Source: Patescibacteria group bacterium
Lineage (GTDB): Bacteria > Patescibacteriota > Dojkabacteria > GCA-002793355
Reading direction: 5' to 3'
DNA: 64,000 nt
NCBI GenBank assembly: GCA_016860985.1
Contig: BOKM01000001.1
Span: 463,462-527,461, forward strand
Below, piece by piece: positions 10,274 through 33,257 of the stretch; position 1 is the first letter of the stretch, and each line of letters begins with the position of its first letter. Made by a program: the position numbers and the translations under genes. The notes below the pieces were generated by a model. That model was given only the letters and a program-made list of their open reading frames with translations. It was not told where the DNA came from and made no database searches.

Positions 10274-10283
10274 ATTGGACCAA

Positions 10284-10699
10284 TTGTTCAAAGTGGAGGT
10301 GAGGGGAATCGAACCCCTGTTCAGCTATTCTAAAAAAGAAGTTTCTCCCAAAACAGTCTGAGTTGTTTACGAGATTATGCCTAAAAATCAGACAAAAAAG
10401 CATAACCCGCCCACACAAATACGATTCTGGCAACTCAGCGGAACTAGCGGCCAGTCGGCATGAACTTTCTTACTCCTGGCTCTCCGCTTGTCATGCGAAG
10501 GAGGAAAAGCCAGTTACGTCGAAATTAGACGTATGAGAATTGCATTGCTGGAGAAACAGCTTTGAGGGCTGAGTTCACGAACGATGCGATTTTCTCAGAA
10601 AGGGTTTGTTTGGCACTTTATGTGCTTTGATAGTTTAACGGGATATCAGCCCGTTTGGCTACTTCTTTCAACGAACAACCGTCTAAACCGATCACCCCC
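10284..10699 (-). ncRNA. ssrA: tmRNA (ssrA), about 415 nt
   Basis: The minus-strand 5' end GGGGGUGAUCGGUUUAGACGG resembles the canonical tmRNA 5' end (GGGGCUGAUUCUGGAUUCGACGG). The 3' end ...CAGGGGUUCGAUUCCCCUCACCUCCA has a T-arm (GGUUCGAUUCC) and an acceptor strand that pairs with the 5' GGGGGUG. CCA is not encoded. Confidence 0.7.
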
Positions 10700-10772
10700 G
10701 GTTACGGAATAATGAATTATATCATTTTTCTGGGGTAAAATGCTATAATACCCATTATTTGACAACTATTAC

Positions 10773-11513
10773 ATGTCACCCTTTTGGCAAGCATTGTCGG
10801 GCATTCTCATCATCAGTTTTATACCTGTAGTTGGTGTTATAAGTCTGTGGCTCTCAAAAAAAACGCTGTCCCGTTATACGCATTTATTAGTGAGTTTTGC
10901 TGTAGGTGCACTTTTAGGAAATGCAATTATTCATCTACTCCCCGAAGTGTTTACAGAAGCAGAGAGAACCGAGATTGTACCCTTTCTCGTTATTGCTGGC
11001 ATACTTCTTTTCTATCTTTTGGAACAATTCCTGCGTTGGCACCATAGTCACGAACAACCCGAAACAGCAAAAGCACAATCAATCGCGACGATGAGCATTT
11101 TTGGCGATTCTGTTCATAACTTTCTTGATGGGCTTCTTATTGCCGGAAGTTTTATTGTTGATCCTCGTTTAGGGTGGTCTACCGTATTGGCAGTAATTCT
11201 TCACGAAATCCCACAGGAAATCGCGGACATAGGCATTCTTTTCTATGCAAAATGGCCTACTAAAAAAATACTCATTGCAAATATACTTTCAGGATTAATC
11301 GCTGGAGCCGGTGTTTTGGTCGGATTCATCGCAAATAATACATTTGAGGCGTTTGCGCCGTACTCGCTTGCTCTTACTGCAGGAGGGTTTATTTATATCG
11401 CGTGTACCGATCTTATTCCAGACCTTCACCAACACGGGGCAGAATCAACAAAAGAACGGCTAATCCAATTCTGTATGCTTCTTCTTGGATTAGGGCTTTT
11501 TGCGATACTCTAG
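10773..11513 (+). CDS. zupT: ZIP family metal (zinc) transporter
   Basis: HEIPQEIADIGIL signature of ZIP/ZupT transporters and multiple transmembrane helices. Confidence 0.8.
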   Translation: MSPFWQALSGILIISFIPVVGVISLWLSKKTLSRYTHLLVSFAVGALLGNAIIHLLPEVFTEAERTEIVPFLVIAGILLFYLLEQFLRWHHSHEQPETAKAQSIATMSIFGDSVHNFLDGLLIAGSFIVDPRLGWSTVLAVILHEIPQEIADIGILFYAKWPTKKILIANILSGLIAGAGVLVGFIANNTFEAFAPYSLALTAGGFIYIACTDLIPDLHQHGAESTKERLIQFCMLLLGLGLFAIL

Positions 11514-15357: not shown

Positions 15358-16689
15358 TTATTTTTTAATCTGTGCACGAAAATCCTGTTCCATCACTTTC
15401 TTTCGATATTTGTTGGCAAAACGATGGGCTTCATCTCTAAGTTCACGCAAATGGAGGTAGCCAATATTTGATTTTTCAACTTTTGTGACTCGCCACTTAC
15501 CCTCGACCTTTTTTAGAAAAAAGTCATTTGGTTTAAAGATTCCTACGATAGGGACATTCTCAAATGGAGTACCTTTGACGGCATCAATAACAGCACCTAC
15601 TTGCCCCTTTCCACCATCGATCAGAAGCAAATCGGGTAATCGCCAGGCTCGCTTGATTCTTCGGCCTAGAATTTCTTTCATCATCCAAAAGTCCGAAATA
15701 CCTGTTGTATATTTAATTCTGAATTTTCGGTACTGATCTTTAGCTAGCTTTCCGCCCTCGCTCACAACCATAGAGCCTACAGTCCATTTTTCCATGATAT
15801 TTGAGATATCGTAGCATTCTATTCGTTCGGCGGAAGGAAGTTCCAAAAATTGCGCTATATCGTCAGCCCGCCGTTTGTACACATCCACCAAGAGGTTCGG
15901 GTTATCAACATACTGGTCAGGAAGAATACTCGCGGTTTCCAATTGATGTAACTTCGAAAGTGTATCTCTAATTTCTTTTGCTTTCTCGTAATCCTCGGTT
16001 TGCGCAAGCATCCTCATCTCTTTCTCTAGCTCCTCGATTGCGGTGGAATATCCTTTTTTTAGAAACATTTCTAAACCAAGAATATTCTTTCTATTTTCCT
16101 GATATTTAGCGATATCTCCACAGGCGCCGGTGCACAAACCAATATGCGCGTACATACAAGCTCGGTGCTGTTTTAATGATTGAGTAAGCTTGGTTTTAGG
16201 ATATTCACAATGAGGGTAAATTCGTCTTAAATGCTTTAGTACTTGGATGACGAGCGAACCATCAGGAAAAGGACCGTAAAAACGAGTCCTTTTCAAACTC
16301 CTTCCATGAACACCAAAAATTTTTGAAAATGTGTATTTCTTACCTTCGAATAAAACATCAAAATCTTGCACCGCAATATATTTATATGACTTATCGTCTT
16401 TTAACGAGATATTATAGTGTGGTTTATACCGTTTAATGAGCTCTGCTTCAAGTAAGAAGGCCTCGATTTCGGAGCGGACTTGAATAATATCGAGGTCAAC
16501 AATCTGCGACACAAGCGCTTCGGTTTTGGGACCTTTGTATGTATCTACGAAATAACTTGAAACACGATTTTTTAAGTTTTTTGCTTTACCAACATAAATA
16601 ATTTTCCGCTTTTCGTTGTAGTAAAGGTAACACCCTGCGGTGGTTGGAAGGTTGGCTAATTTTTTTTGGAGTTTTATTGAGAGTACCAC
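15358..16689 (-). CDS. uvrC: excinuclease ABC subunit C (compact form lacking the C-terminal HhH domain)
   Basis: N-terminal GIY-YIG (GCYLYYNEKRKIIYVGKAKNLKNR) and a C-terminal RNase H-like endonuclease motif (CYDISNI...GSMVV). It is only 443 aa. Confidence 0.8.
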   Translation of the reverse strand: MVLSIKLQKKLANLPTTAGCYLYYNEKRKIIYVGKAKNLKNRVSSYFVDTYKGPKTEALVSQIVDLDIIQVRSEIEAFLLEAELIKRYKPHYNISLKDDKSYKYIAVQDFDVLFEGKKYTFSKIFGVHGRSLKRTRFYGPFPDGSLVIQVLKHLRRIYPHCEYPKTKLTQSLKQHRACMYAHIGLCTGACGDIAKYQENRKNILGLEMFLKKGYSTAIEELEKEMRMLAQTEDYEKAKEIRDTLSKLHQLETASILPDQYVDNPNLLVDVYKRRADDIAQFLELPSAERIECYDISNIMEKWTVGSMVVSEGGKLAKDQYRKFRIKYTTGISDFWMMKEILGRRIKRAWRLPDLLLIDGGKGQVGAVIDAVKGTPFENVPIVGIFKPNDFFLKKVEGKWRVTKVEKSNIGYLHLRELRDEAHRFANKYRKKVMEQDFRAQIKK

Positions 16690-16715
16690 AGAGAATTATA
16701 CTATTTCTCAATTGT

Positions 16716-16994
16716 TTACGAATCTTCGAGTTCTTGCTTGGCTGCTTCCCAATCCATGTTTGGAGTGACTGTGATTTGCAGACTCGTTCCATCGGCATTC
16801 AGTTGCCTTACATCAGTGACAACTTTACAAATTCTGTGTGCAAACTGACAACCCACACATCCCTGATCAGCAAGCACTTTATCTATTGCTGCTGCTTCAT
16901 CGGGAAGAAAGGGTGGTTCTCCTATTCCGACTCGATGAGTATTTTCTTCATTCTCACACGGCATTTTTTCTAAAATTTCCCATTCAGTAGCCAT
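16716..16994 (-). CDS. small acidic hypothetical protein with 4 Cys (possible metal-binding), 4 nt downstream of uvrA
   Basis: 92 aa ORF with Cys at PCENEE and GCVGCQ...C. No recognisable family. Confidence 0.35.
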   Translation of the reverse strand: MATEWEILEKMPCENEENTHRVGIGEPPFLPDEAAAIDKVLADQGCVGCQFAHRICKVVTDVRQLNADGTSLQITVTPNMDWEAAKQELEDS

Positions 16995-16997
16995 GTT

Positions 16998-19900
16998 TTA
17001 CTCCGCAATATCTAACTCTTTAAGCATCTTACCCGTCCAACTCCTTGGATTTCGTCTAATGTCACCTATTGTGCCTGTCGCTACGATTTCTCCACCACCA
17101 GTTCCACCTTCGGGACCTAAATCGATGAGATAGTCAGCTTCCGCGATAAAGTCGAGGTTATGTTCAATTACAAAAACACTATTCCCTGTCGCAACTAAGG
17201 TTTTTAATACTGCTACCAGTTTCTCAATATCTGCAAAATGCAGACCAGTAGTTGGTTCATCAAGGATGTAGATTGTTTTACCTGTCGAACGCCTTCCAAG
17301 TTCTGCTGATAACTTCACTCTTTGTGCCTCTCCACCCGACAACATTGGGGCTGGCTCTCCAAGCTTCAAATAGCCAAGCCCTACTTGCTGAAGCATTTCG
17401 AATTTTTCTCGAATCATCGAGATTTCTGAAAAGAAAGCAGCAGCTTCATCTACCGACATATCCAACACATCTGCAATATTCTTTCCTTTGTACAACACTT
17501 CTAGAACCTCAGACACATATCGCTTACCGTGACAAACATCACAGTCAATATACACATCGGGCATAAACTGCATTTCGATCTTTATCTTACCCTCTCCTTT
17601 ACAGGCTTCACAACGACCACCTTTCAGGTTGAAACTAAAGCGACTTGCGGTGTAACCTCGCACTTTGGAATCCTTTGTTTGAGCAAAAAGTTCTCGAATA
17701 TCGTCGAAAACCTTTGTGTATGTTGCAGGATTACTTCTTGGTGTTCTACCAATTGGCGACTGATCAATGTAAAGGAGCTTGTCAATAACATCCGATACGT
17801 ATAGGTTTCTGTATTCTGTGTCGGGGCTATCTGTTCTCAGACCAAGAGTCTTTTTGATAGCAGGCAACAAGGTTTCCACCACAAGGGAGCTCTTTCCTGA
17901 ACCTGAAACACCAGTTATTGCAACAAATTTTCCGAGCGGAAACTTAACCGTTACATCTTTTAGATTGTGTGTTTTTGCCCCAGAAAGCTCTAAATACCGG
18001 TCAGCTACGCGCATTCGGGCATGTGACGCAAGAGCATCGTTTAATTTTTTGTTCTTACCAAGCCCTAACTTCACGAGTTTTTCGACTTCTTTTGCAATTG
18101 TTTTCTTACCAGCTAAGTACGGGCCAGTTACAGATTCGGGGTTGTCCATAATCTCTTTTGGCGTACCCATAGCAACGATTTTTCCTCCACGATCTCCTGC
18201 ACCCTTACCAAAATCAAGTACAAGATCTGCATTCATCATGGTATCTCTGTCGTGCTCAACAACGATCACAGTATTTCCCAAATCACGAAGATGCTTTAAT
18301 GTCGCGATTAATCGATGTTGATCTCGTGCATGCAGCCCAATCGAAGGTTCATCTAGTACGTAAATTACCCCCGAAAGGCCTGTTCCAATCTGACTCGCAA
18401 GGCGAATTCGCTGTGCTTCTCCACCAGAAAGCGTAGTTGCAGTTCTACTCACGGTTAAGTATTCAAGCCCCACGTCTAATAGAAATTGCGAACGAAGGAG
18501 GATTTCTCGAATTACTGGTTGTGCAATTGTCTGAGCTTTTGAATCAAATTCTTTAATAAATCCCTTGGTCTCATCTGTAAACTCTTTGATGGTTAAATCG
18601 CAAAGCTGGGAGATATTTAGATTATTAATGGTTACCGCAAGCACAATATCTTTAAGCCTTGTTCCTTTACAAGTTGGGCACGTAACCGTACTCATAAACT
18701 TCTCAATTTCGGTTCGAATAAAATCTGAATTTGTTTCTTTATACCTGCGCTCTAAGTTCGGAATTATCCCCTCGTATTTGGCATGAAGCGAGCGTTCTGT
18801 TCCGTCTTGGCTCGAAAAGTACGTTACTTTGTACTTTTGATCTCCCGTTCCGTAAAGAATCAGGTGTAATTTACCCTCAGTAAGCATACTCACTGGCGTA
18901 TGAATCGAAATAGTGTGTGCATCACAGACTAGTTCAAGCAACCTTCTAAAGTAAGAATCTCTCTCAAGCATTTTTGCGTACGGCATGATGCCACCTGCAA
19001 GTATCGAACGCTTTCCGTCGATAATTCCCTCTGTTGATATCTTCTTTATAACGCCAAGTCCATCACATTCAGGGCAGGCACCGTGTGGGGAATTAAAGGA
19101 AAAATCTCTAGGTTCAAGATCAGGAACAGAAATACCGCATTTTTTACAACTTTTGGTAACGCTATAATCGTGGGAAAGTACTGAGGTTGGACGAGCAGGT
19201 ATTCCCGGTTGTGGATCTCTTATTTCTAAAATTCGAACAAAGGTTGGTTGAATTTTAAGTGCGGCCTCAACTGATTGAAATATTCTTGAGCGCATTTCTT
19301 TTAGCGCTTCTTCTGAATCAAAGAGCGTTTTGCTCACACTTAAGGTGTCGACTACTACTTCTATTTCGTGTTGCTTGTACTTGTCGAGCTGTGGCAACAT
19401 TAATTTCAAGTCAATATATTCACCATCAACTCGAACAACATTCCACCCCTGTTTTCGCAAGTTCATAAATACCTGCTCATATTCACCTTTTCTTCCAGAA
19501 ATTGGAACTGCGGTAATCATAAAGCGGAACCCAAATTTTTGAGTATTTTTATCGTTTTCGTATTCGCGTTTTATCTTCTGCAATAAACCATCTACTACCT
19601 GGTCAATTGTTTGGGAGGTAAGTACCGCCCCACATTGTGGACAATGCGCAACACCGACTCTCGCGTACAACAATCGTAGGTAATCATAGATCTCGGTGAT
19701 TGTACCAACAGTCGAACGAGGATTATGTGATACCGTTTTCTGGTCAATAGCTATAGAGGGTGACAATCCTTCAATTTTATCGACATCTGGCTTACGTAGT
19801 TCACCCAAGAATTGCCTTGCATATGCAGATAAGCTCTCCACATATTTTCGCTGGCCTTCGGCATAAATGGTATCCATTGCAAGTGAGCTCTTGCCAGACC

Positions 19901-20000
19901 CCGACAAGCCAGTAAAAACAATCAACTTGTTTTTTGGGATATCGACGTCAATATTCTTGAGATTGTTCTCGCGCGCACCGCGAATCGAGAGAAAGTCCAT
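16998..20000 (-). CDS. uvrA: excinuclease ABC subunit A
   Basis: Two ABC ATPase modules with Walker A (GLSGSGKSS and GVSGSGKSS), LSGGE signatures, and zinc-finger Cys pairs. 1000 aa. Confidence 0.95.
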   Translation of the reverse strand: MDFLSIRGARENNLKNIDVDIPKNKLIVFTGLSGSGKSSLAMDTIYAEGQRKYVESLSAYARQFLGELRKPDVDKIEGLSPSIAIDQKTVSHNPRSTVGTITEIYDYLRLLYARVGVAHCPQCGAVLTSQTIDQVVDGLLQKIKREYENDKNTQKFGFRFMITAVPISGRKGEYEQVFMNLRKQGWNVVRVDGEYIDLKLMLPQLDKYKQHEIEVVVDTLSVSKTLFDSEEALKEMRSRIFQSVEAALKIQPTFVRILEIRDPQPGIPARPTSVLSHDYSVTKSCKKCGISVPDLEPRDFSFNSPHGACPECDGLGVIKKISTEGIIDGKRSILAGGIMPYAKMLERDSYFRRLLELVCDAHTISIHTPVSMLTEGKLHLILYGTGDQKYKVTYFSSQDGTERSLHAKYEGIIPNLERRYKETNSDFIRTEIEKFMSTVTCPTCKGTRLKDIVLAVTINNLNISQLCDLTIKEFTDETKGFIKEFDSKAQTIAQPVIREILLRSQFLLDVGLEYLTVSRTATTLSGGEAQRIRLASQIGTGLSGVIYVLDEPSIGLHARDQHRLIATLKHLRDLGNTVIVVEHDRDTMMNADLVLDFGKGAGDRGGKIVAMGTPKEIMDNPESVTGPYLAGKKTIAKEVEKLVKLGLGKNKKLNDALASHARMRVADRYLELSGAKTHNLKDVTVKFPLGKFVAITGVSGSGKSSLVVETLLPAIKKTLGLRTDSPDTEYRNLYVSDVIDKLLYIDQSPIGRTPRSNPATYTKVFDDIRELFAQTKDSKVRGYTASRFSFNLKGGRCEACKGEGKIKIEMQFMPDVYIDCDVCHGKRYVSEVLEVLYKGKNIADVLDMSVDEAAAFFSEISMIREKFEMLQQVGLGYLKLGEPAPMLSGGEAQRVKLSAELGRRSTGKTIYILDEPTTGLHFADIEKLVAVLKTLVATGNSVFVIEHNLDFIAEADYLIDLGPEGGTGGGEIVATGTIGDIRRNPRSWTGKMLKELDIAE

Positions 20001-20045: not shown

Positions 20046-20675
20046 TTATTGGACTCCGGCCTTCTTTAGCTTTGTAATCACAAAATATGTTAATGGTGTT
20101 GCCACTACTTCATATACTACTTTTACGACCCATTGAGTAAGAACCATCGTTACGATTTGTGCCGATGCTAATAGTCCTCCAAATGCGATCCCCAGAAATA
20201 AGATTGTATCTACACCTTCACCGAGCACCGTTGAGGAGATAGTTCTCAACCACAAAAACCTGCCCTTGGTCAATTCCTTGATTTTGTGCATGCTCCAAGC
20301 GTTTAAAAGAGAGCCTCCCAAATAGCCGGAAAATGAAGCAACGAGGATTCTCGGTGCTACACCTAAAATAGCATCAAAGCTGAGCTGTAAATCCCAAAAA
20401 GGAGCAGCAGGCAAGGCTTGGGCAGCAGCGATGGCAAGCACCACAATAAAGTTTGCAACAAAACCAAGTAGAATTGCGAATTTTGCTTTCTGAAATCCAA
20501 ATATCTCCGTCATTACATCTCCAATGATGTAACTTAATGGGAAAACTACTATACCAGCAGGAAGAAAAACGCCACCAAGTCCCACAATTTTTACAGCAAT
20601 TATATTGGCAGCAATCAGACAGGCAATAAATAAAGAGGTCAACCCAACAAAATAACCTGAATACATAATTTGCAA
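20046..20675 (-). CDS. yhhQ: YhhQ/VUT-family queuosine-precursor (preQ0/preQ1) transporter
   Basis: Conserved PLSYIIGDVMTEIFG motif of the DUF165/YhhQ family and about 6 transmembrane helices. Confidence 0.7.
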   Translation of the reverse strand: MQIMYSGYFVGLTSLFIACLIAANIIAVKIVGLGGVFLPAGIVVFPLSYIIGDVMTEIFGFQKAKFAILLGFVANFIVVLAIAAAQALPAAPFWDLQLSFDAILGVAPRILVASFSGYLGGSLLNAWSMHKIKELTKGRFLWLRTISSTVLGEGVDTILFLGIAFGGLLASAQIVTMVLTQWVVKVVYEVVATPLTYFVITKLKKAGVQ

Positions 20676-20728
20676 TCAAATTTATCTTTCTACCGATGAT
20701 ACATTAAGTTAGGCCCCCCCTCAATAGC

Positions 20729-20757
20729 TTGACTATGGGACCGCACTTCTTTAAAAT
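20729..20757 (+). promoter_or_regulatory. sigma70-like promoter (TTGACT-N17-TAAAAT) for the DpdA-like gene; the mRNA is probably leaderless
   Basis: Near-consensus -35 and -10 elements with a 17 nt spacer. The -10 element ends 5 nt before the ATG at 20763. Confidence 0.35.
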
Positions 20758-20762
20758 AACGC

Positions 20763-21545
20763 ATGCGCCTTGCGATTATTGCACCAAATGCATATCTGCA
20801 GGATTTTTCAGCTTTTCATAACAACTCATACCATCTTGTTCTTGCACATCGATTCAACTCCGAGCCCGAATACCGTAGTTTTTACATTGAGCAAAGAAAG
20901 AAGACTCACAGTTTTATAATTCTTGATAACGGAGCTTGCGAACTCGGAGAGTCGATTAACAATGGCACACTACTAGAAACTGCCAGTGTCCTTCGTCCTG
21001 ACGTACTTGTTCTTCCCGACGTCTTGCATCAAAGTCAAGCAACAATTGCCAGAACAGAGAAATTCATTGAGTCCTATAAACACCAGAACAAAATAAAGTG
21101 CAAATTGATGGCAGTTGTACAGGGCAAAACAAGAAAGGAGTGGCTCTCAACATTATCTTCCTTTACCTCTAATCCATATATCGATATGATTGGGATTTCG
21201 AGTACAAACGCCGTATACCCGAAGACAAAAAACTACTATACCAGAATCAAAACACTTAGGTATTTGCATCAAAGACAACTTATAGGGAAGAAAAAAATTC
21301 ATATGCTCGGGTTAGATGACTCTGGACACTTCGAATTACGTCATTTCTCAAAATATTCCTTCATCGAAGGAGCAGATTCTAGCGCTCCAGTAGTTCATGG
21401 AGCAAAAGGGATAAAAATTTACAAGAACAAGCGTTACGAAAAGATTCGAACGTATCTACCAAGCGATGCAATCCTCACGAAGGAGCAGGTATTAGCAGTA
21501 AAAGCTAATCTGCAAGTATTTTTTGACATGGCTTCACATGAATAG
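20763..21545 (+). CDS. short TGT-fold guanine transglycosylase-like protein (DpdA-like), lacking the C-terminal zinc subdomain
   Basis: Matches to tRNA-guanine transglycosylase landmarks: LMAVVQGKT (LFGIVQGG), IHMLGLD (YLMGVG) and FIILDNG (LTDSGGFQ). Only 260 aa and no CxCxxC..H zinc site. Confidence 0.5.
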   Translation: MRLAIIAPNAYLQDFSAFHNNSYHLVLAHRFNSEPEYRSFYIEQRKKTHSFIILDNGACELGESINNGTLLETASVLRPDVLVLPDVLHQSQATIARTEKFIESYKHQNKIKCKLMAVVQGKTRKEWLSTLSSFTSNPYIDMIGISSTNAVYPKTKNYYTRIKTLRYLHQRQLIGKKKIHMLGLDDSGHFELRHFSKYSFIEGADSSAPVVHGAKGIKIYKNKRYEKIRTYLPSDAILTKEQVLAVKANLQVFFDMASHE

Positions 21546-23292
21546 AAAAATATTTGTATCGGGCGAAGGTGCTCGAGGAGCAGGAAAAACCTCTACGTTA
21601 AATGTTCTACTGCAAGAATCTACGACTCCCACTGCTGTTAACAGGGTAGCCCCAAACATACCTACAGAGCACCTTCTTCTGATTGACACTCATAAAGCGA
21701 CAAGCCCGTTTCACAAGAGAGCGCTCGAAATACATAAACAGTGGGAAGAAGCCGTCAAAACCCCAGGTGAAGGTGCAGAGCGATTATCATGGAAAAAGTT
21801 TGAGCTCGGAATACTACAGCTACGGTATGAATCCGACAGCTATCACGACGCAACTAGCAAAGCGGAGCAAATTTTTCTCGATAGAGATATTGATACAGCT
21901 GTCGTATACTCTGCAGCAGAGATTATTTTATCCAATCCTCACAAATACGATTCGGTACGTTCGCATATTGCGCTACTACACAATCTATGGCAGAAAGTAT
22001 ATTCAGTATGCCAGACAAACGACTGGGACGTGAGCACTTTTCCACACCTTGATACCGAAGATGATGTCTTATCATTAGTTGATTTTTTAAAACAACAACC
22101 CTTAAGGGATATACCCACTAATACCTTTTACTTCTTTACAAAAGATAAGACTGAATCACTAAAAAGGAGCCACACTTTACGTATAGACACTGCACTCGAA
22201 TACAATCTCACCGTAGTACAGCAAGCAACACAAGATATTATCCAACCATTGTACCTCTATTCCTTTCTCATCCGAAAACAATTATTCCCTGAGGCGCAAG
22301 TTCATTATCTCTCTTCAGATGCGCACAACATCAAAGAGCTCGCGAATTTGGTAAAACTACATGTTAATACGACGACGCTTGAGGTTCCAGGCGCAGACCA
22401 TATCCCCGTTAAGCTACGAATACCTTTTAACAAAGACCACTCCCTACCCTCATCCATTGAGACGCTTAGCCAAGTAATATTCGAAAGCACTGTTGGATCA
22501 ACCTTCCCAAGCAAACGAGAAGTACACATTAATGGAGAATCAAATTGTGTTTACAACAATAAGGCACTGTACGAATACGCATCATTACTAGGACTTGGCC
22601 ACATTGAATTCGTCCAAATTCAACGAGAGACATTCTCTGAAACTTGTCCTGTCCACTGGGCGTGTATTGAGTGGCTTACTCCCCAAAGAGATACTGCACG
22701 AATAATTGATCTGACACCTTTTAGAATTAAGCCCTACATTTCCCAACCTTGTAAAGTTACACACAATGGGGATACATACCAACTGACCTCGCTCACACAA
22801 CAGCCTATTGAATTTACTCAAGTAAAGAAAGAAACGTCATTAATTCCAGAAAGAGCCATGGAATTCGCCTATAACGTTGAATATACTTTCCAGGAAGAAT
22901 CGTTACAAGCATTAACACGTGAGGGATATGAATTGTTAGGCCAATCAAACAACGAATCGCAGAATATATTTTTAACTATTAGGTTAGGAAGATTGTTGCA
23001 GAAACAGGAACGCATCCAAGAGGCAGTCGAATTGCTTGAGCGAGCAGTGACCACTTTCCCGCAAAATCTTATACTTGCCAGGGAAGTTGCAAAGTATGTC
23101 ATTGATGGGTACATTAAATTCGTACCACCGTATTTTTATACTTACCTCAGTAACGCAAACCAGATTCTTGAACGAACTACCCAAACAATGCGAGAACATG
23201 ATATTGATGAAACTGAAATCAATGCGTATTATGAGTATAGGAAATTTATTCCACATGCACTTAAGTTAATCACCGAAGAACATGAAAGTTGA
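21538..23292 (+). CDS. hypothetical P-loop NTPase with a long alpha-helical (TPR-like) C-terminal region
   Basis: Walker A GARGAGKTS near the N-terminus. The ORF-track start is TTG, and the first ATG is at 21538. No further family assignment. Confidence 0.45.
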   Translation: MNRKIFVSGEGARGAGKTSTLNVLLQESTTPTAVNRVAPNIPTEHLLLIDTHKATSPFHKRALEIHKQWEEAVKTPGEGAERLSWKKFELGILQLRYESDSYHDATSKAEQIFLDRDIDTAVVYSAAEIILSNPHKYDSVRSHIALLHNLWQKVYSVCQTNDWDVSTFPHLDTEDDVLSLVDFLKQQPLRDIPTNTFYFFTKDKTESLKRSHTLRIDTALEYNLTVVQQATQDIIQPLYLYSFLIRKQLFPEAQVHYLSSDAHNIKELANLVKLHVNTTTLEVPGADHIPVKLRIPFNKDHSLPSSIETLSQVIFESTVGSTFPSKREVHINGESNCVYNNKALYEYASLLGLGHIEFVQIQRETFSETCPVHWACIEWLTPQRDTARIIDLTPFRIKPYISQPCKVTHNGDTYQLTSLTQQPIEFTQVKKETSLIPERAMEFAYNVEYTFQEESLQALTREGYELLGQSNNESQNIFLTIRLGRLLQKQERIQEAVELLERAVTTFPQNLILAREVAKYVIDGYIKFVPPYFYTYLSNANQILERTTQTMREHDIDETEINAYYEYRKFIPHALKLITEEHES

Positions 23293-23794
23293 TCAAGCAA
23301 AACTTGGAGTAGGTACAATCTGTTACCTACACTCAAACGACTCTTACTTACTAGGCGAAAAAAAGTACGGTGGCGCACAAGGTAAAGTTAATGGGTTTGG
23401 TGGCAAGATCGAAACGACAGACCAATCAATCTATGATGCAGTTAAGAGGGAATTTCGTGAAGAAACATCAATCCAACTCAACGCACCCAAGTATTGTGGC
23501 ATTATCGAAATTTTTAAGAACGAGACGAGAAAAGCAATTTTTTATCTGTTTAAAGCAGATGACTTTATCGGCCAACCTCAAGAATCTGAGGAGATGAAAG
23601 TGTACTGGGTGAAAAATACTGAGGTCCCTTTCGAAAAAATGTGGGCATCAGATGCATTATGGCTTCCACTCTTTCTTAAAAATGACAATATACGTGTAAA
23701 ACTTTATTTTCAGGAAGGCAATGACAAAGCAGATCGAATGGAAGTAACCTTTAATGCGACTCTAGATGAAACATATCACGAAAACTTTATCTAA
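23282..23794 (+). CDS. NUDIX hydrolase
   Basis: Nudix box G.....E.......REFREETSI. Confidence 0.7.
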   Translation: MKVDQAKLGVGTICYLHSNDSYLLGEKKYGGAQGKVNGFGGKIETTDQSIYDAVKREFREETSIQLNAPKYCGIIEIFKNETRKAIFYLFKADDFIGQPQESEEMKVYWVKNTEVPFEKMWASDALWLPLFLKNDNIRVKLYFQEGNDKADRMEVTFNATLDETYHENFI

Positions 23795-24668
23795 GGTTCC
23801 ATCCTATTTGATAGAAACTATTGAGAAGGAATCTATTCCCTACCTCGAGCAAGTTCGTGTAAAGGAATATTCTAAACGTCTTCCACCACTTGAAGGGCAA
23901 AGAGTTGCAGTAATCCCTTGGAGTGGTGGGTTAGACTCAACAACCAGTCTTATCATGGCGATAGAAGCAGGCATCTCAATCAGGACCATATTTCTGAATT
24001 ACGGACAACCTTACATAAAGAAAGAATTGCTCGCAACCAATAAGTTAGAAAAACTGATACGCGCAAAATATCCGGAAGCAGATTGGACCGAGCATTACAT
24101 AGTCGATGTGAGCTTCATAGACCAGCTTGTGAAATCGAAATTCAACGGAGAATGGGGACATATTTTCCCAATGCGTAACTTTCTCATCCTTGAAGAATCA
24201 GCCGCGATAGCACAACCAAATAGATACACAGAAGTTTGGTTTAGCAGTGTGCAAGGAGAAATGCCTTATTCAGGAGGAGACAAGAGTGTGGTATTTCTCA
24301 CCTATATGAAAGAAATTTTTGGAAAACGGAATATTAATTTAACCACGCCGCTCGTCGGCCTCACAAAGGCAGATATGGTTCAATGGGCTATTGCCCAACT
24401 AGATAGGTTCCGTATTATTCGACATACGATATCCTGCTTCAACGGAGAAGGAGATTCCCACTGTGGTGAATGTCAAGCTTGTTTCAATCGTGCAGTAGCA
24501 TTTTTCGCTGCAAATCAACTCCCACTTAGCGGAGTCCCTTACCACAAAAACGCATTGCAAAATTTTGGAGAAAATTATATTCGTAAACTTGCTAAAGAAA
24601 GTTATTACTCCCCAACAAGAAGAAGCCAGTTACAGCAGTTCATAAACTTTATAAGCCAACAAACATGA
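23766..24668 (+). CDS. QueC-family PP-loop ATPase (7-cyano-7-deazaguanine synthase-like) with an N-terminal extension of about 45 aa
   Basis: PP-loop SGGLDSTT and a C-terminal zinc cluster SCFNGEGDSHCGECQACFNRAVAF, which matches the QueC signature TCYNG....CGHCAAC.LR. Confidence 0.7.
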   Translation: MKHITKTLSKVPSYLIETIEKESIPYLEQVRVKEYSKRLPPLEGQRVAVIPWSGGLDSTTSLIMAIEAGISIRTIFLNYGQPYIKKELLATNKLEKLIRAKYPEADWTEHYIVDVSFIDQLVKSKFNGEWGHIFPMRNFLILEESAAIAQPNRYTEVWFSSVQGEMPYSGGDKSVVFLTYMKEIFGKRNINLTTPLVGLTKADMVQWAIAQLDRFRIIRHTISCFNGEGDSHCGECQACFNRAVAFFAANQLPLSGVPYHKNALQNFGENYIRKLAKESYYSPTRRSQLQQFINFISQQT

Positions 24669-25534
24669 TTAGCTTTGTTATACCCTCTTATCAGCGAGCA
24701 GACGGTGCAATCTTTATGATACTTAATTTGTTGCACCAAACAGTTTTCACAAAATATCCAACAGAACTAATACTGTCTATTGATGAAACTGATACCCAAA
24801 AAGAATTGTATGCAAACTACATCATTCAAGCAAAAAAAATTGCGCAAGAAATCGTACCTGCATGTAACATATCACTCCTGGTTAATCAGACAAAAGGCTT
24901 AGTCGCAGCAAAGAATAACGCTGTGCGAGCTTCTAAATACGAGTTCATCATGATGCTCGATGATGATCTTGCTGCAGTAGATAATTACGTTGAAGCCTTG
25001 TTAGCCGACATGAAGGCTGCCCCTTCAGTAGGTGCTATTTCAGGATTTATAGTTTCATACCTTTCTGCTATATCTCACACTCAACCCTCCGATTTCATTG
25101 AAGAGGTACCTAAGGAATCGCATCTACAGACACTAAAACTGGACTCCAACAATGGTGCTTGGAGAACATTTTTCGGCAAGAAAGAGCAGGTCATGGATTG
25201 GAGTAGAATCAATAAGAATATTCCTTCTACGGTTCGCTATACCATGGACTATTTTGTCAATTCGTATCTCTTTAGAAGAAGCGCATACAACAAAATAGGT
25301 GGATACTCAAATGATTTAAATTCTAAGACATCTGCCCACGAGGAGGTCGATTTCACTTATAGAATGAGAAAAGCTGGCTACCAACTTCTTTTTAATCCAT
25401 TTGTCCAGATGTGGCATATTACCGTCGGCCACGGAGGTATCTACAAAGGAGCAGATTACAATGAGAGTAAAGAAATCTTAGAAAAAGAGTATAAAGAAAG
25501 TATACCTCTATTTGTTCAGTCGATTTCCAGGTAG
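24665..25534 (+). CDS. family 2 glycosyltransferase
   Basis: ISFVIPSY N-terminus, a MMLDDD DxD motif and an EEVDF.YR.RKAGY C-terminal GT2 signature. Confidence 0.6.
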   Translation: MISFVIPSYQRADGAIFMILNLLHQTVFTKYPTELILSIDETDTQKELYANYIIQAKKIAQEIVPACNISLLVNQTKGLVAAKNNAVRASKYEFIMMLDDDLAAVDNYVEALLADMKAAPSVGAISGFIVSYLSAISHTQPSDFIEEVPKESHLQTLKLDSNNGAWRTFFGKKEQVMDWSRINKNIPSTVRYTMDYFVNSYLFRRSAYNKIGGYSNDLNSKTSAHEEVDFTYRMRKAGYQLLFNPFVQMWHITVGHGGIYKGADYNESKEILEKEYKESIPLFVQSISR

Positions 25535-25577: not shown

Positions 25578-26372
25578 ATGAAATCCCCGTATGTTCAGGG
25601 TTTGAAACAGGGGTTCGCCGAACTTTCAGTCTACTCTCTCGATTTCCTGTTTGGGTTATTCCAAGCAGTTGCGCTTGTCGGCTTTGAAATACTCCTGTGG
25701 ACTTTTGTCCTCCCTGCTGATAACCAAACTGCCCTATTTGAACGCACCTCTTATTTTTTGCTAGCCAATGGCATTGCCTTGGTAATCGGAGGTGCCCGAT
25801 ATCGCTTTGCCAGAGATTTATCACTCGTCATCAAAGAGGGAACGTTGTCGCACTACCTTCTTAAACCGATTAATCCTGTACTTTACATCTATTCAGAACA
25901 TGTTGGAGGAAAAGGACCAGATTTTATGATCGGATTAATTTTTATAATCATGGGAACTTTGTGGATACCGACCTTTACGCTCGTTAAGCTACCATTGTTG
26001 TTGATAACGCTGGCTGCAGCTCTCATAAATACAATCTCACTAAACGTTATCGCAGGGGCTGTAGCCTTTTGGACAACCGAGGCAAACGGTATTAAGAATG
26101 CCTTTGCGCAAACAACGCGATTATTTAACGGACAGCAAGTTCCCATCAATCTTTTCATGGAAATGATCAGTCCTTTTTGGGCGCAATTCTTGTATATTCT
26201 CCCCTTCGCAAGTGTTGCATATACGCCAACGCACATAGTTATTGCCAAAACATTCGACGCAATAGATTTTAGATTTATCATCGCTTCGATTATCTGGGCG
26301 TTCATTCTCCCGTTACTCGCAACACTAATTTGGAATAGAGGACTCAAACGATATGAGGGGACTGGTCTCTAA
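25578..26372 (+). CDS. ABC-2 type transporter permease
   Basis: Six predicted transmembrane helices. It sits just upstream of a second permease and an ABC ATPase. Confidence 0.5.
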   Translation: MKSPYVQGLKQGFAELSVYSLDFLFGLFQAVALVGFEILLWTFVLPADNQTALFERTSYFLLANGIALVIGGARYRFARDLSLVIKEGTLSHYLLKPINPVLYIYSEHVGGKGPDFMIGLIFIIMGTLWIPTFTLVKLPLLLITLAAALINTISLNVIAGAVAFWTTEANGIKNAFAQTTRLFNGQQVPINLFMEMISPFWAQFLYILPFASVAYTPTHIVIAKTFDAIDFRFIIASIIWAFILPLLATLIWNRGLKRYEGTGL

Positions 26373-27171
26373 CCTACGATTCTACTTTCGAGTACTTGCA
26401 AAAAAGATTTTGTTTGCCTGGCAGATAGAAACGGCTTACGCAGGGAACACGATAGGTGAGCTTTTTTCAACCATTTTTTACAACATTACCTTTATTATTT
26501 TTATCGATATTGTACTGCGAAAATATAAGCTGCTCGCTGGCTACTCTTTCAACGATATGCTGGTACTTGTTTTTGTGACACAGATTGTATTCTATACAGG
26601 ACTAACTATTACTTACGATAGCATGTCAAAATTCGTACAATCTGTAAGAGATGGTATTTTTGATACGTACCTTCTCAAACCGATGTCTGTTTTCTTTCAA
26701 GTGATGACCTTAAGCATCAGGCCGTTTTCTGGGCTGTTCTTTTCTGTTCCACCATTGCTAATTTATGTAGTGCTCATCATTAAAAATCAAGCATTTCATC
26801 CCGAACCTTTTGGGCTAACGGTTGGCTTACTTGGAATGTTGGTTGGGATTCTCTACCTTCATTTTTATCGATTTACGTTTGCGATGTTCGTGTTTAAAAC
26901 AAAACAGGTAAAAAACCTACTCAAAACACTTGACCTACTTGGGGATGCTGGATCTTTTCCCTACGAGGCTTATGTTGAACCGTTTAGAACAATTGTCTTT
27001 TTTATTGCGCCATTTCTTGCTGCGGCTGCCATTCCTGCAACCTACTTCTTAAACAAAACGACTTCTCTTTGGCCATTTGTTATTCAGATTGGACTCATGC
27101 TATTTTTTATGACTACTGCACTACTTTTATGGAGAAAAGGATTAAAAGAATATGAATCAATTTCATCTTAA
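26353..27171 (+). CDS. ABC-2 type transporter permease
   Basis: Polytopic membrane protein that overlaps its neighbours. Confidence 0.5.
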   Translation: MRGLVSNLRFYFRVLAKKILFAWQIETAYAGNTIGELFSTIFYNITFIIFIDIVLRKYKLLAGYSFNDMLVLVFVTQIVFYTGLTITYDSMSKFVQSVRDGIFDTYLLKPMSVFFQVMTLSIRPFSGLFFSVPPLLIYVVLIIKNQAFHPEPFGLTVGLLGMLVGILYLHFYRFTFAMFVFKTKQVKNLLKTLDLLGDAGSFPYEAYVEPFRTIVFFIAPFLAAAAIPATYFLNKTTSLWPFVIQIGLMLFFMTTALLLWRKGLKEYESISS

Positions 27172-27186
27172 TTATTCACCCCTATT

Positions 27187-28170
27187 ATGAAACCAGTTAT
27201 CACTACACAAAACCTCAAAAAGGATTTTCTTGTTCCTGCACGACAGTCATTTTGGCAAAGACTGTTTACTCCAAAATACGAAGAAGTCACGGCTGTCGAC
27301 AACATTTCTTTTCACATTATGGAAGGCGAATCTGTTGCACTTCTTGGACCGAATGGCGCGGGCAAAACAACAACCATGAAAATGATGACCGGCATACTTT
27401 ATCCAACAGCCGGAAGTTGCAATGTGCTTGGATACAACCCTAATAAACGCAACCCTGCGATGCTTAAAAACATTGGCTTTGTAATGGGCAATAAAAGCAC
27501 GCTTTCTATGGACCTTTCCCCTATGCAAAACTACGAGCTTAACAGAGTTATTTACGATATTGATGCCACAAGATTTTATAACACGATAGACGAACTTGGG
27601 GAACTTCTTGAGGTAAAAGATCATTTATATAAACAAACACGAAAACTCTCGCTTGGACAAAGAATGAAAGCGGAAATGATAAACTCGATACTACACAGAC
27701 CGAAGATTCTCTTTCTAGACGAACCGACCATTGGACTAGACATCTCCTCTCAGAACAATATTCGCACATTTCTTAAAAAAGTTAACAAAGAGCTAGGAAC
27801 GACGATTATCCTTACGAGCCACAATATGGAAGATATTTCACAAGTTTCTGAAAGAGTACTTATAATCAATCAAGGCAAACTCGTTTACGACAACTCTCTC
27901 GAAATGCTGAAGCGGACTTTTTCAACAAAAAAATACATCAAGGTTATTGTTACAACAAAAGGAAACTCCCGCTCCTTTGAGAAAAAGTTTAAGCCATTTG
28001 GTGACATTGTCAGCTCTGGTAAAGATTTCGTGACGCTCGAAATTGATAAAAACAGACAGGCACCCATTATTGCAGCAATACTCAACATGGAGCACGTTCA
28101 TGATATCGATATTGAGGGGGTACCACTCACAAAAATCATAGAATCGATTTTCAAGAAAAAACTTGATTAG
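27187..28170 (+). CDS. ABC transporter ATP-binding protein (ABC-2 exporter ATPase with a C-terminal extension)
   Basis: Walker A GPNGAGKTT, signature LSLGQRMK, Walker B ILFLDEPT. Confidence 0.85.
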   Translation: MKPVITTQNLKKDFLVPARQSFWQRLFTPKYEEVTAVDNISFHIMEGESVALLGPNGAGKTTTMKMMTGILYPTAGSCNVLGYNPNKRNPAMLKNIGFVMGNKSTLSMDLSPMQNYELNRVIYDIDATRFYNTIDELGELLEVKDHLYKQTRKLSLGQRMKAEMINSILHRPKILFLDEPTIGLDISSQNNIRTFLKKVNKELGTTIILTSHNMEDISQVSERVLIINQGKLVYDNSLEMLKRTFSTKKYIKVIVTTKGNSRSFEKKFKPFGDIVSSGKDFVTLEIDKNRQAPIIAAILNMEHVHDIDIEGVPLTKIIESIFKKKLD

Positions 28171-31202: not shown

Positions 31203-33257
31203 CTAGCTTTTAAGATTTTTTATAAGTTCACGTAGTTCAATTGCTTTTTCAAAATTCAGGGACATCGCTTCTTTCTTCATCTCTTTTGTTAACCAATCAA
31301 TTGTGGATTTTTGCTCTTTTTTGGGCATAGTGCGGTACGAAGCAGTCATAATTTCGATATCTTTCCCAAGCATTGTATGGATCTTCTTCTCGCGTGCTAC
31401 ATCTGTTTCTTCTTCAATTTTTGGCAATATACGTTCTCTGATTGCTTTGTGGATAGATTGTGGAGTAATTCCCATCTTCTGGTTATACTCTAACTGTGCC
31501 TTTCGGCGTCTTTCTACTTCAAAGAGCGCTTCTTGCATACTGTGAGTTGTATGGTTCGCGTACAAAATGACTCGTCCTTCTACGTGCCTTGCTGCTCTCC
31601 CCATTGTTTGGATTAAACTTGTTCTGGAGCGCAAAAAACCTTCTTTATCCGCATCAAGAATTGCAACCAACGAAACTTCCGGCAAGTCCAAGCCTTCACG
31701 CAACAGGTTAATTCCTACCAAAACATCGTAATTACCTGCTCTTAGGTCAGAAAGAATATCAGTTCTGTCCATCGTATCGATATCAGAGTGCAAGTAGGTC
31801 ACCCTTACTCCACCTTCTTTTAGATACTCAGACAAGTCTTCTGCCATCCGTTTTGTCATTGTGGTAACCAGTACGCGTTCTTTTTTGGCAATTGTCGTTT
31901 TAATTTCAGTTACCAAATCCTGGATCTGATTTTCGGCAGGACGTACCTCAACAACCGGATCAACGATGCCTGTAGGTCTAATGAGTTGCTCTGCAACGTT
32001 CTCTTTTCCTGCTTTTTCCATTTCATATTCTTCCGGTGTTGCCGAGAGAAACACTGTATACCCCATTCGGTCTTCGAATTCAGGAAACCGCAAGGGTCTG
32101 TTCTCTTTTGCCGAAGGAAGGCGAAAGCCATAGTCTATAAGATTTTGCTTTCTTGCTTGGTCACCATTGTACATGCCTCTGATCTGAGGAACAGTCATAT
32201 GTGATTCATCAATAACCAGCAAGTAGTCTTTTGGAAAATAGTCCATTAGTGAATATGGCGGGTCACCAAGCTGTCGGCCATCAAAGTAATAGGAGTAGTT
32301 TTCAATGCCTTTGCAATATCCAATTTCGCGAATCATTTCTAAATCATATTGAACCTTTTGCTTTAATCGGTGAGCTTCTATCAATTTTCCTTGAGATTCG
32401 AACTCTTTAACTCGTTTTGCCGTATCTTGTTGTATCCTTTCTATTGCTTGCTGCTGAAGTGCCTCGTCCATTACATAGTGCTTCGCGGGGTACAAGACTA
32501 CTTTTTTAATCGCTTCGCCTTCTGTTTCTAGCAACATGTCGATATAGTACGAATAGTCTGTGATAACTGCTCCATCTATTGGGTTAAATAGCTCTAAAGA
32601 AGAAACCTCGTCACCCAAGTATGTGACTCGAACACCAATATCTGCATATGAAATGTAAATATCAACAGAATTACCCCTAATTCGAAAGGTTCCTCTTTTA
32701 AAGTCGATATCGTTTCGTTCATAATACAAGTTGACTAACTGTGCTTGCAGCTTTTGTGGACCATTTCCTTTTCCAACTTCAACCAGTGCCATCGCATTTT
32801 TATACGTTTTTGGTGAACCAAGGTTGTAAATTGCCGATACTGACGCGATAACAATTGCATCCTCTCTTGTCATTAATGCAGTAGTTGCAGCCAGTCGGAG
32901 TTTATCAATTTCTTCATTAATATCCGAGTCTTTTTCAATATACAAGTCACGCTGAGGAATATACGCCTCTGGTTGATAGTAGTCGTAGTAACTAACGAAG
33001 TAATGAACAGCATTTTTAGGAAAAAACTCTTTAAACTCTTGGTACAACTGCGCCGCGAGTGTCTTGTTGTGAGAAATAATCAGGGTCGGTTTTTGAACAC
33101 GCTGAATAAGATTTGCCACTGTAAAGGTTTTTCCGCTACCAGTCACTCCGAGTAATACTTGTGAATGTTGACCGTTACCGACTCCTGCAACTAGTTTTTC
33201 TATTGCCGTAGGCTGGTCACCCATCGGACTATATTGTGCAGAGAGTTGGAACTTCAT
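31203..33257 (-). CDS. uvrB: excinuclease ABC subunit B
   Basis: Helicase Walker A GVTGSGKTFT, the YVSYYDYYQPEAY beta-hairpin region, and a C-terminal UVR domain. Confidence 0.95.
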   Translation of the reverse strand: MKFQLSAQYSPMGDQPTAIEKLVAGVGNGQHSQVLLGVTGSGKTFTVANLIQRVQKPTLIISHNKTLAAQLYQEFKEFFPKNAVHYFVSYYDYYQPEAYIPQRDLYIEKDSDINEEIDKLRLAATTALMTREDAIVIASVSAIYNLGSPKTYKNAMALVEVGKGNGPQKLQAQLVNLYYERNDIDFKRGTFRIRGNSVDIYISYADIGVRVTYLGDEVSSLELFNPIDGAVITDYSYYIDMLLETEGEAIKKVVLYPAKHYVMDEALQQQAIERIQQDTAKRVKEFESQGKLIEAHRLKQKVQYDLEMIREIGYCKGIENYSYYFDGRQLGDPPYSLMDYFPKDYLLVIDESHMTVPQIRGMYNGDQARKQNLIDYGFRLPSAKENRPLRFPEFEDRMGYTVFLSATPEEYEMEKAGKENVAEQLIRPTGIVDPVVEVRPAENQIQDLVTEIKTTIAKKERVLVTTMTKRMAEDLSEYLKEGGVRVTYLHSDIDTMDRTDILSDLRAGNYDVLVGINLLREGLDLPEVSLVAILDADKEGFLRSRTSLIQTMGRAARHVEGRVILYANHTTHSMQEALFEVERRRKAQLEYNQKMGITPQSIHKAIRERILPKIEEETDVAREKKIHTMLGKDIEIMTASYRTMPKKEQKSTIDWLTKEMKKEAMSLNFEKAIELRELIKNLKS

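Follow-up and report, generated by a model that had tools for sequence, protein, structure and literature searches.

7-Deazaguanines occur in the DNA of phages and of bacteria that carry the Dpd restriction-modification island. The locus described here, which lies in a 64-kb stretch of the contig BOKM01000001.1 from a Patescibacteria group bacterium (hereafter the window), raises the question of what a set of genes related to 7-deazaguanine enzymes does in such a chromosome. The unit in question is an operon of 5 tightly overlapping plus-strand genes at positions 20763 to 25534, each overlapping the next by 4 to 29 nt. It encodes, in this order, a DpdA3-type transglycosylase of 260 amino acids (aa), a multidomain protein of 584 aa, an MTH1-like NUDIX hydrolase, a divergent QueC paralog, and a soluble glycosyltransferase of family 2 (GT2). 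The answer that we consider most likely, at slightly less than an even chance, is that the operon serves to place a 7-deazaguanine in the DNA of the cell itself and to modify that base further, probably by glycosylation.

An earlier, sequence-only reading of the window had described a minimal, salvage-based module that ended with the QueC-like gene. All 6 open reading frames that it listed were found at the same coordinates, but the gene set was incomplete, since the fifth gene, coding for the GT2 protein, had been left out and was co-conserved with the other 4 in all 6 loci. Nor is the system minimal, as the conserved core consists of 5 genes, one of which codes for a large, kinase-like enzyme of several domains.

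These 5 genes, identically arranged, were found in 6 loci, namely the window, L001 (55% identity), L002 (on the same contig as L010), L003, L011 from a metagenome-assembled genome (MAG) of Candidatus Daviesbacteria, and L012 from a MAG of Candidatus Saccharimonadia. Adjacent genes overlapped by 1 to 41 nt, save for 2 gaps of 10 and 44 nt, while the loci had GC contents between 31% and 56% and differed in their flanks. Because the order and the overlaps have been kept in loci of differing GC content and flanks, we take the 5 genes to be one functional unit. With 6 loci found in total, the cassette is very rare. It was also noted that the contig of L002 and L010 (CAYUGO010000011.1), which contains the 5-gene cassette and YhhQ at 36% GC, was labelled as an uncultured Gammaproteobacteria MAG, which suggests either mis-binning or horizontal transfer. 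The window proteins are labelled "Patescibacteria group bacterium" at NCBI, where those of 260 and 584 aa are listed as "hypothetical protein", and identical proteins were present on at least 9 contigs, which stem from several sequencing runs and include one of 1.05 Mb.

The transglycosylase and its viral relatives

The first gene product had been read as a TGT-fold protein that lacks the zinc-binding subdomain and is nearer to the DNA-guanine transglycosylase DpdA than to tRNA Tgt, and this was confirmed by the structure and profile comparisons. The protein has a (β/α)8 barrel of the TGT type, for which DpdA was the closest structure, with Cap10 ranked below DpdA, TGT, ArcTGT, and QTRT2. By sequence, it gave no match in Pfam, NCBIfam, PADLOC, or PDB; the Pfam TGT model PF01702 gave none at E ≤ 0.1, and no precomputed Pfam domain was found on any of 18 homologs. 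The residues that were invariant in an alignment of 18 sequences are D55-N-G (ILDNGAxE), P85-D86 (VLPD), Q120, H180-x-x-G183, and D205-S-S-A-P-V, which include the catalytic Asp pair (D55 and D205) and the Asp/Gln pair for guanine recognition (D86 and Q120). These 4 residues align to the segments TDSGG, FDEC, IQGS, and FDCVMPTR in E. coli Tgt and to LDSGAF and CDSSSW in phage DpdA. A family profile of 113 sequences matched the classical Seuratvirus DpdA with a probability of 80% (E = 1.3e-5) and E. coli Tgt over 222 columns with a modest E-value of 0.009, the invariants falling on TDSGG, FDEC, IQGS, LMGVG, and FDCVMPTR. The hhalign comparisons were informative only with this profile, shallower ones giving E-values of 0.53 against Tgt and 0.0017 against DpdA. 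The zinc-binding CxCxxC...H subdomain, which in TGT enzymes helps to bind the polynucleotide, was not found in the orthologs, which contain 1 to 5 Cys residues, none of them conserved.

A tblastn search against 50,697 phage records identified the group of Campylobacter phages CP220, CPt10, and CP21 with E-values of 5e-12 to 1e-9. Together, the named DpdA3 members, which are this group and the Flavobacterium phage immuto_2-6A, matched with E-values of 5e-12 to 6e-9 at 26% to 31% identity and 79% to 90% coverage, and the immuto_2-6A gene bears the annotation DNA guanine transglycosylase DpdA. The CP220 and immuto_2-6A phages have been assigned to DpdA3 and have genomes in which G is fully replaced (PMC10516641). 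Judged by these sequence relationships, the 260-aa protein belongs to the DpdA3 subfamily of phages. The wider family comprised 5,093 clusters at 50% identity, in which the window clade is tiny, with 2 representative clusters at this level and about 8 proteins at 43% identity or more. It is also distinct, as its members were at least 43% identical to the window protein (mostly 43% to 45% and up to 85%), whereas all other relatives were at most 31% identical.

The genes within 6 kb of viral family members were surveyed in 47 IMG/VR loci. FolE was encoded in 33 of these, QueE in 17, QueD in 15, and QueC in 12, and DNA polymerase A and primase-helicases were typical neighbors. With FolE near the family in 33 of the 47 loci, and YhhQ or QueD-QueE flanking the operon, the link to 7-deazaguanine metabolism proposed earlier is strong.

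As the closest structure is that of a DNA enzyme, DpdA, and the closest sequences are those of phage DNA-modification enzymes located in replication modules, we favor DNA as the substrate. An RNA target, which we consider quite improbable, would make the operon a non-canonical 7-deazaguanine pathway for tRNA or rRNA that replaces Tgt and the Que enzymes, with the GT2 protein producing a glycosylated, queuosine-like nucleoside. This would agree with the role of YhhQ as the transporter through which the queuosine pathway of tRNA is fed by salvage and with the lack of a canonical Tgt, which was detected neither in the window nor in any other cassette locus, and glycosylated queuosines do exist in eukaryotic tRNA. 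However, both the structural resemblance to DpdA and the placement of the closest phage DpdA3 genes in replication modules with PolA and primase speak against it, and the 260-aa protein contains neither a tRNA-binding nor a zinc subdomain. Moreover, it is hard to see what an MTH1-like dNTPase and a domain resembling deoxynucleoside monophosphate (dNMP) kinases would do in tRNA modification, and a cassette that is confined to 2 clusters at 50% identity and 6 loci is ill-suited to a housekeeping pathway.

Table 1. Positions of the operon, its upstream region and 2 further features in the window
Feature	Position	Strand	Remarks
tmRNA gene	10291-10699	-	full length; Rfam, 92 bits, E 1.6e-34
YhhQ/COG1738 (Vut_1) transporter of 7-deazaguanine precursors	20046-20675	-	divergent from the operon; optional accessory
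Intergenic region between yhhQ and the operon	20676-20762		87 bp
DpdA3-type, zinc-less TGT-fold guanine/7-deazaguanine transglycosylase (putative), 260 aa	20763-21545	+	first gene
584-aa protein, thymidylate-kinase-like P-loop domain	21538-22407	+	aa 1 to ~290; motifs, Pfam, PDB profile
584-aa protein, α/β middle domain	22423-22872	+	~150 aa; putative Cys/His/Asp site
584-aa protein, TPR-like helical domain	22873-23292	+	C-terminal; weak TPR Pfam matches at aa 486-523
MTH1/NUDT1-like NUDIX hydrolase, modified purine (d)NTP pyrophosphatase type	23282-23794	+	11-nt overlap with the upstream gene
Divergent QueC-family PP-loop ATPase	23766-24668	+	PF06508, E 6.8e-24
Soluble GT-A (GT2) glycosyltransferase	24665-25534	+	fifth gene; 4-nt overlap of its start with the end of the QueC-like gene
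ABC-2 transporter operon	25578-28170	+	directly downstream of the GT2 gene

The kinase-like protein and the NUDIX hydrolase

The product of the second gene had been described as a P-loop NTPase with a helical region of about 550 aa. The P-loop is real, with an invariant Walker A motif, but the long helical tail is not: the protein, which probably starts at the ATG at 21538 as in public gene calls, consists of a kinase-like domain, an α/β middle domain, and a domain of about 140 aa resembling tetratricopeptide repeats (TPR). The kinase-like domain contains the invariant motifs GxRGxGK[ST], DRDxDTxVxY, and PDxTF...LxRS. Pfam Thymidylate_kin (PF02223) was the top match in all 4 orthologs, with E-values of 6e-6 to 3e-3 that were all below the cutoff (at best 26.5 versus 27 bits), and nearly all matches of a domain profile to PDB were to thymidylate kinases (TMPKs), with a best E-value of 5.4e-5. 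The 3 TMPK motif regions (the P-loop fEGxDGxGK[ST], DR[YF]xxS, and the lid/PDLT region) could be aligned, in a part of the protein where the structure model was poor. Homology to the phage TMPKs encoded beside DpdA3 was considered and rejected, since the BLASTP matches were not significant and the kinship to TMPKs was obtained by profile searches only.

In the middle domain, N336-C337, P371-V-H373-W, R388, D391, and a T-P-F motif were invariant, and no Pfam or PDB match was obtained. In a low-confidence model, a helix begins with the Cys residue, and the strands that follow carry the His and Asp residues, which suggests that the domain is a putative thiol enzyme. The C-terminal domain is all-helical and was the best-modelled part of the protein; Foldseek matched it only to repeat proteins of the TPR type, none of them significantly. 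It should be noted that the model was built from 4 homologs only and had a predicted local distance difference test (pLDDT) score of 60, so that its Foldseek matches are not meaningful. No more than 4 homologs of the 584-aa protein were found among 5.8 billion proteins, no phage relatives were identified, and metagenomes of the Joint Genome Institute (JGI) contained no further copies.

The third gene was confirmed to encode a NUDIX hydrolase, which could be refined to the MTH1/NUDT1 type (phmmer against PDB, E ~1e-23). Matches over about 125 residues were obtained to NUDT1 (5otn, E = 9.7e-24) and human MTH1 (E = 7.7e-20), and to bacterial MutT at about 1e-6. The Nudix box G-x5-[DE]-x8-REFxEE was kept in all 6 loci, the segments LLGxKKxGxxxGxxNGFGGK and PFxxMWxxDxxWxPLxL were conserved, and the base-recognition segment of MTH1 was retained (MWASDALWLPLFL versus MWPDDSYWFPLLL in the human protein), with Ser replacing the first of the 2 adjacent Asp residues of MTH1.

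Enzymes of a similar kind were observed next to DpdA3 genes in viruses. MazG-like genes were located within 2.6 kb of DpdA3 in 11 of the 47 viral loci, in 5 of them at a distance of 600 nt or less, while control sets gave 0 of 8 and 1 of 19, which as small sets of related sequences are too small for statistics. A MazG-like gene was also found directly upstream of the DpdA3-like gene in a prophage-like module (L013, positions 5984 to 10848) with the gene order QueC, YhhQ, MazG, DpdA3-like, PolA. In immuto_2-6A, genes annotated as NTP pyrophosphohydrolase and TMPK flank DpdA3, in CP220 it is flanked by genes for an HD phosphohydrolase and a TMPK, and the phiST cluster holds a MazG/dUTPase-like gene (PMC10516641). 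The recurrence of NTP pyrophosphohydrolases of 3 unrelated folds (MazG, HD, and NUDIX) beside DpdA3-type genes may mean that the dGTP pool is manipulated by DpdA3 systems, and no published explanation for this pairing was found. A general trio of DpdA3, TMPK, and NTPase was rejected as a pattern, as a TMPK neighbor was identified in only 1 of the 47 viral loci in the HMM and jackhmmer censuses.

These neighbors are most relevant to the strongest of the competing explanations, in which modification precedes replication. The DpdA3-type enzyme would exchange the base on a free guanine deoxynucleotide, the NUDIX hydrolase would turn dGTP or the modified dNTP into the monophosphate, the TMPK-like domain would rephosphorylate the modified dNMP, and a polymerase would incorporate it, with the QueC-like and GT2 proteins tailoring the base before or after this incorporation. 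The MTH1-like NUDIX family does act on free purine dNTPs, and the 584-aa protein has a dNMP kinase-like domain. The 3 folds of pyrophosphohydrolases beside DpdA3 and the TMPKs in immuto_2-6A and CP220 fit the same picture, and the 260-aa enzyme lacks the zinc subdomain of both canonical TGT and DpdA. Furthermore, DpdA3 phages replace 100% of their G, and DpdA3 has never been shown to be active on DNA (PMC10516641). Even so, we regard this explanation as unlikely: activity on mononucleotides is not known for any enzyme of the TGT superfamily, the TMPK neighbor is not general, the MazG association lacks an adequate control, and pool sanitation explains the NUDIX hydrolase equally well. Global replacement of G in a salvage-fed cellular genome would also be demanding and without precedent. 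More doubtful still is the far-reaching version, according to which DpdA3 enzymes act on the deoxynucleotide pool together with a pyrophosphohydrolase and a dNMP kinase-like enzyme to yield a 7-deazaguanine dNTP, so that much of the genomic G of this lineage is replaced by a glycosylated 7-deazaguanine. If this were true, a hypermodified purine would be known for the first time from a cellular genome.

The QueC paralog, precursor supply, and the glycosyltransferase

The QueC-like call for the fourth gene stood at the level of the family, being supported by PF06508, the SGGLDS motif, and a Cx8CxxCxxC cluster, but not at the level of function, as the protein scored 69 bits against the 150-bit cutoff of the equivalog model TIGR00364. 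Extensions of about 45 aa at the N-terminus and about 50 aa at the C-terminus were conserved, and WSGGLDST and SCFxGxGxxHCGxCxACF were invariant. A refined QueC signature comprises YxQxHxxE, VPxRN, YPDC with an essential Tyr, and Tyr189 (PMC13082051). Compared with this signature, the QueC-like proteins keep SGGxDS, the Arg-Asn of VPxRN (as FPMRN), a conserved Lys, and Cx8CxxCxxC, but YxQxHxxE is changed to YGQPYxxKE (His to Tyr), YPDC to an invariant PYSGGDKS, and Tyr189 after the first zinc Cys to Phe. With YPDC lost and the His of YxQxH replaced, the protein is best described as a predicted ATP-dependent enzyme that activates the C7 carboxyl and has a remodelled substrate pocket, and the synthesis of 7-cyano-7-deazaguanine (preQ0) should not be assumed. 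In the JGI metagenomes, relatives of the protein were found only as fragments with 32% to 33% identity, including the C-terminal extension (L068, SDBT01450764.1; L069, SDBT01654704.1); these may represent a sister clade of the cassette paralog, although the contigs are short.

QueC-family enzymes also carry out protein deazaguanylation in the type IV cyclic oligonucleotide-based antiphage signaling system (CBASS) with Cap9/Cap10 and in QatABCD (bioRxiv 10.1101/2025.04.06.647259, PMC13082051). As in these systems, a QueC-family enzyme is here paired with a TGT-fold enzyme, and the QueC-like protein is divergent, extended, and weakly similar to QatC and Cap9. A defence signalling role of this kind would have the QueC-like protein ligate 7-carboxy-7-deazaguanine (CDG) to a protein N-terminus, with the TGT-like protein binding or transferring it. 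Weak matches of the C-terminal part to QatC (2e-6 in NCBIfam and 5e-5 in PADLOC) and the presence of extensions at both ends, as in QatC, are consistent with such a role. We nevertheless hold it to be very improbable and have largely rejected it, as both the partner proteins (CD-NTase, QatA, QatB, and QatD) and a modified M(G/S)G(G/S)GG or Gly-rich N-terminus are missing from the cassette. The TGT-like protein is also nearer to DpdA than to Cap10, and the operon is flanked by genes for UvrA, an ABC transporter, TyrRS, and similar proteins, a housekeeping context rather than a defence island.

The assignment of the divergently transcribed upstream gene to the YhhQ family was upheld, with an E-value of 1.9e-49 for Pfam Vut_1 and 119 bits against a cutoff of 51 for TIGR00697, the "queuosine precursor transporter" model; the protein contains 5 hydrophobic segments. 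No Rfam match indicative of a riboswitch was obtained in the spacer between yhhQ and the operon at E ≤ 1. Promoter-like hexamers were seen there on both strands (20729 to 20757 on the plus strand and 20724 to 20696 on the minus strand), and such sites were no commoner in this region than in shuffled sequences. Consistent with the sequence-only reading, neither FolE, QueD, nor QueE was found within the window, and the same was true of QueF, Tgt, and QueA.

The description of the system as salvage-based, however, was not borne out as a defining trait. YhhQ was located divergently upstream of the operon in 3 of the 6 loci (the window, L001, and L002), QueD-QueE was located upstream of and translationally coupled to the operon in L003, and no precursor-supply gene adjoined it in L011 and L012. 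Salvage is therefore one optional feeding route. YhhQ was also found next to DpdA3-type genes in 2 loci unrelated to the cassette, L013 and L014, and salvage-fed DpdA3 systems are thus a recurring theme. As a separate observation, the Escherichia phage VogelGryff (Seuratvirus) encodes a YhhQ of its own (L063, positions 6853 to 7332) inside a FolE/QueD/QueE/QueC/DpdA cluster, from which it follows that transporter-assisted deazaguanine modification of DNA exists in classical DpdA phages too.

The distribution of these genes bears on the simplest explanation, in which YhhQ and QueC provide ordinary queuosine precursor salvage for a canonical Tgt encoded elsewhere in the genome, and their neighbors are unrelated. 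YhhQ exceeds the TIGR00697 cutoff, and the NCBI annotation of the QueC-like protein is 7-cyano-7-deazaguanine synthase. Against this stand the co-conservation of 5 overlapping genes in 6 divergent genomes, 3 of which have no adjacent YhhQ, and the QueC-like protein itself, which falls far below the equivalog cutoff and lacks YPDC with its essential Tyr; a preQ0 synthase would, besides, be made redundant by the import of preQ0. We consider this the least probable of all the explanations. An unusual form of queuosine salvage, which the sequence-only reading had put on a par with DNA modification, is likewise disfavored by the lack of Tgt and QueA in the window, the phage DNA-modification relatives, and the occurrence of the core with QueD-QueE or without a transporter.

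The fifth gene encodes a soluble glycosyltransferase (PF00535, E = 1.5e-10), in which no transmembrane segment was detected and the DDD motif was conserved in all 6 loci. The protein scored 29.8 bits with the TAGT (TET-associated glycosyltransferase) model, above its cutoff of 27.5, and its best PHROG match was a phage β-glucosyl-HMC-α-glucosyltransferase (3e-7). Because these 2 matches, which are weaker than the generic GT2 match, span only the N-terminal 100 residues or so, the kinship to DNA-base glycosyltransferases is a lead rather than proof. No meaningful phage relatives of the GT2 protein were found.

A glycosyltransferase encoded with a kinase-like protein, a NUDIX hydrolase, and a QueC-like amide ligase also resembles a tailoring set for nucleosides, and the operon might accordingly make a free 7-deazapurine nucleoside, nucleotide, or glycoside, i.e., a pyrrolopyrimidine metabolite, rather than modify a polymer. 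Natural products with N-glycosylated and amide-linked 7-deazaguanine exist, and an operon that resembles ABC-2 exporters is located just downstream in the window. The transporter is not conserved with the cassette, however, no phosphoribosyltransferase is present, all characterized TGT-fold relatives act on macromolecules, and the hosts have reduced genomes of about 1 Mb, so we see only a slight chance that a small molecule is the product.

A proposed pathway and its relation to known systems

For modification of the cell's own DNA, which we prefer, we infer the target, the order of the steps, the substrates of the enzymes, and the glycosylation of the base from family membership and gene order. 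The 7-deazaguanine base would first be supplied, by YhhQ import in the window and by de novo synthesis of CDG through QueD-QueE in L003. With ATP, the QueC paralog would then activate the C7 carboxyl or convert it into an amide. PP-loop, zinc site, and the Arg of VPxRN are retained in this paralog, but the YPDC and His motifs, on which preQ0 formation depends, are lost; the product would therefore probably not be preQ0 but a compound of the amide type, for instance 7-amido-7-deazaguanine (ADG) or an amide with an N-substituent. Next, the DpdA3-type enzyme would swap guanine for this base through the Asp pair D55/D205, with recognition by D86 and Q120, and the soluble GT2 would add a sugar to the modified base. 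The NUDIX hydrolase and the TMPK-like domain would handle the matching free nucleotides, perhaps to recycle them or to sanitize the pool. Another option is that the kinase domain phosphorylates the base substituent for activation, as 5-HMUDK does, for which there is a precedent in DNA hypermodification (PMC5889632).

Several observations weigh against this pathway. The relatives of the NUDIX hydrolase and the TMPK-like domain act on free nucleotides, which agrees no less well with a route at the level of nucleotides, and no restriction partner was found near the operon. No DpdA3 enzyme has been shown to be active in vitro or in a heterologous host, and attempts have failed (PMC10516641). The phage precedent is silent on the 584-aa protein, the NUDIX hydrolase, and the GT2 protein, which were encoded in 0 of the 47 viral DpdA3 loci, and the similarity of the GT2 protein to DNA glycosyltransferases is confined as described above.

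The viral DpdA3 clusters are nonetheless the closest counterparts of the operon. Both have a homologous, zinc-less transglycosylase of similarly short length (~260 aa) that is missed by the Pfam TGT model, and both have an NTP pyrophosphohydrolase and sometimes a TMPK-like kinase as neighbors and are tied to FolE, QueD, QueE, and QueC. The Patescibacteria operon differs in being cellular and chromosomal, in forming a clade of its own, in having a divergent QueC, in its ability to run on YhhQ salvage, and in the 3 additional genes that were missing from the viral loci.

The Dpd island, in which DpdA and DpdB of the dpdA-K set insert preQ0 and DpdC makes 2'-deoxy-7-amido-7-deazaguanosine (dADG) (PMC10164549), is likewise cellular and based on 7-deazaguanine precursors from the queuosine pathway. 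As already proposed in the sequence-only reading, the operon is not a classical island of this kind: none of the cassette proteins gave a PADLOC Dpd match, and DpdB, DpdC, and DpdD-K are all missing. Its transglycosylase has no zinc site and falls short of the Dpd enzyme by about 150 residues, a restriction module is missing from the vicinity, and the operon adds a GT2 protein, a NUDIX hydrolase, a kinase-like protein, and a QueC paralog of its own. A looser resemblance is to the thymidine and cytosine hypermodification of phages (5-HMUDK, TAGT, and the glucosyltransferases of T-even phages; PMC5889632), where a base is installed and then tailored by a kinase and a glycosyltransferase. The base would here be a purine, 7-deazaguanine, rather than a pyrimidine, and the resemblance is one of analogy, not of membership.

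Full-text searches of the literature identified no paper on this combination of genes or on 7-deazaguanine systems in Patescibacteria, and a 2026 survey of the QueC family makes no mention of the neighborhood. To our knowledge, neither a GT2 protein, an MTH1-like hydrolase, a kinase-like multidomain protein, nor a QueC paralog with a rebuilt pocket has previously been seen with deazaguanine systems. The operon places DpdA3, the least understood of the phage-type transglycosylases and one that has never been reconstituted, in a chromosome of the Candidate Phyla Radiation. If the proposed pathway is correct, bacterial DNA would contain an undiscovered, probably glycosylated 7-deazaguanine nucleoside. 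The compact operon offers an experimental handle on the mechanism of DpdA3 and on whether it acts before or after replication. Modifications of the 7-deazaguanine type affect restriction, CRISPR targeting, and the sequencing signal, here in lineages that are available as MAGs only.

A few minor observations concern the surroundings of the operon. The ABC-2 transporter operon downstream of the GT2 gene encodes 2 ABC2_membrane_6 permeases and a DrrA-like ATPase; it was present only in the version of the locus in this genome and was missing from the equivalent position in L001, and it was rejected as a part of the module on account of this lack of conservation. DNA-repair genes were noted in the vicinity of the cassette in the window (15358 to 20000 and 31203 to 33257) and L001, with UvrC and UvrA upstream and a UvrB-sized open reading frame downstream, and in L003, with MutL and UvrB upstream (945 to 5409) and an OGG glycosylase downstream (17398 to 18225). 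The cassette may thus adjoin DNA-repair genes in 2 independent contexts, but this was not the case in L011 and L012 and could be a coincidence. Finally, ARAGORN predicted no tRNA or tmRNA gene in the window, where Rfam identified a full-length tmRNA gene on the minus strand (Table 1).

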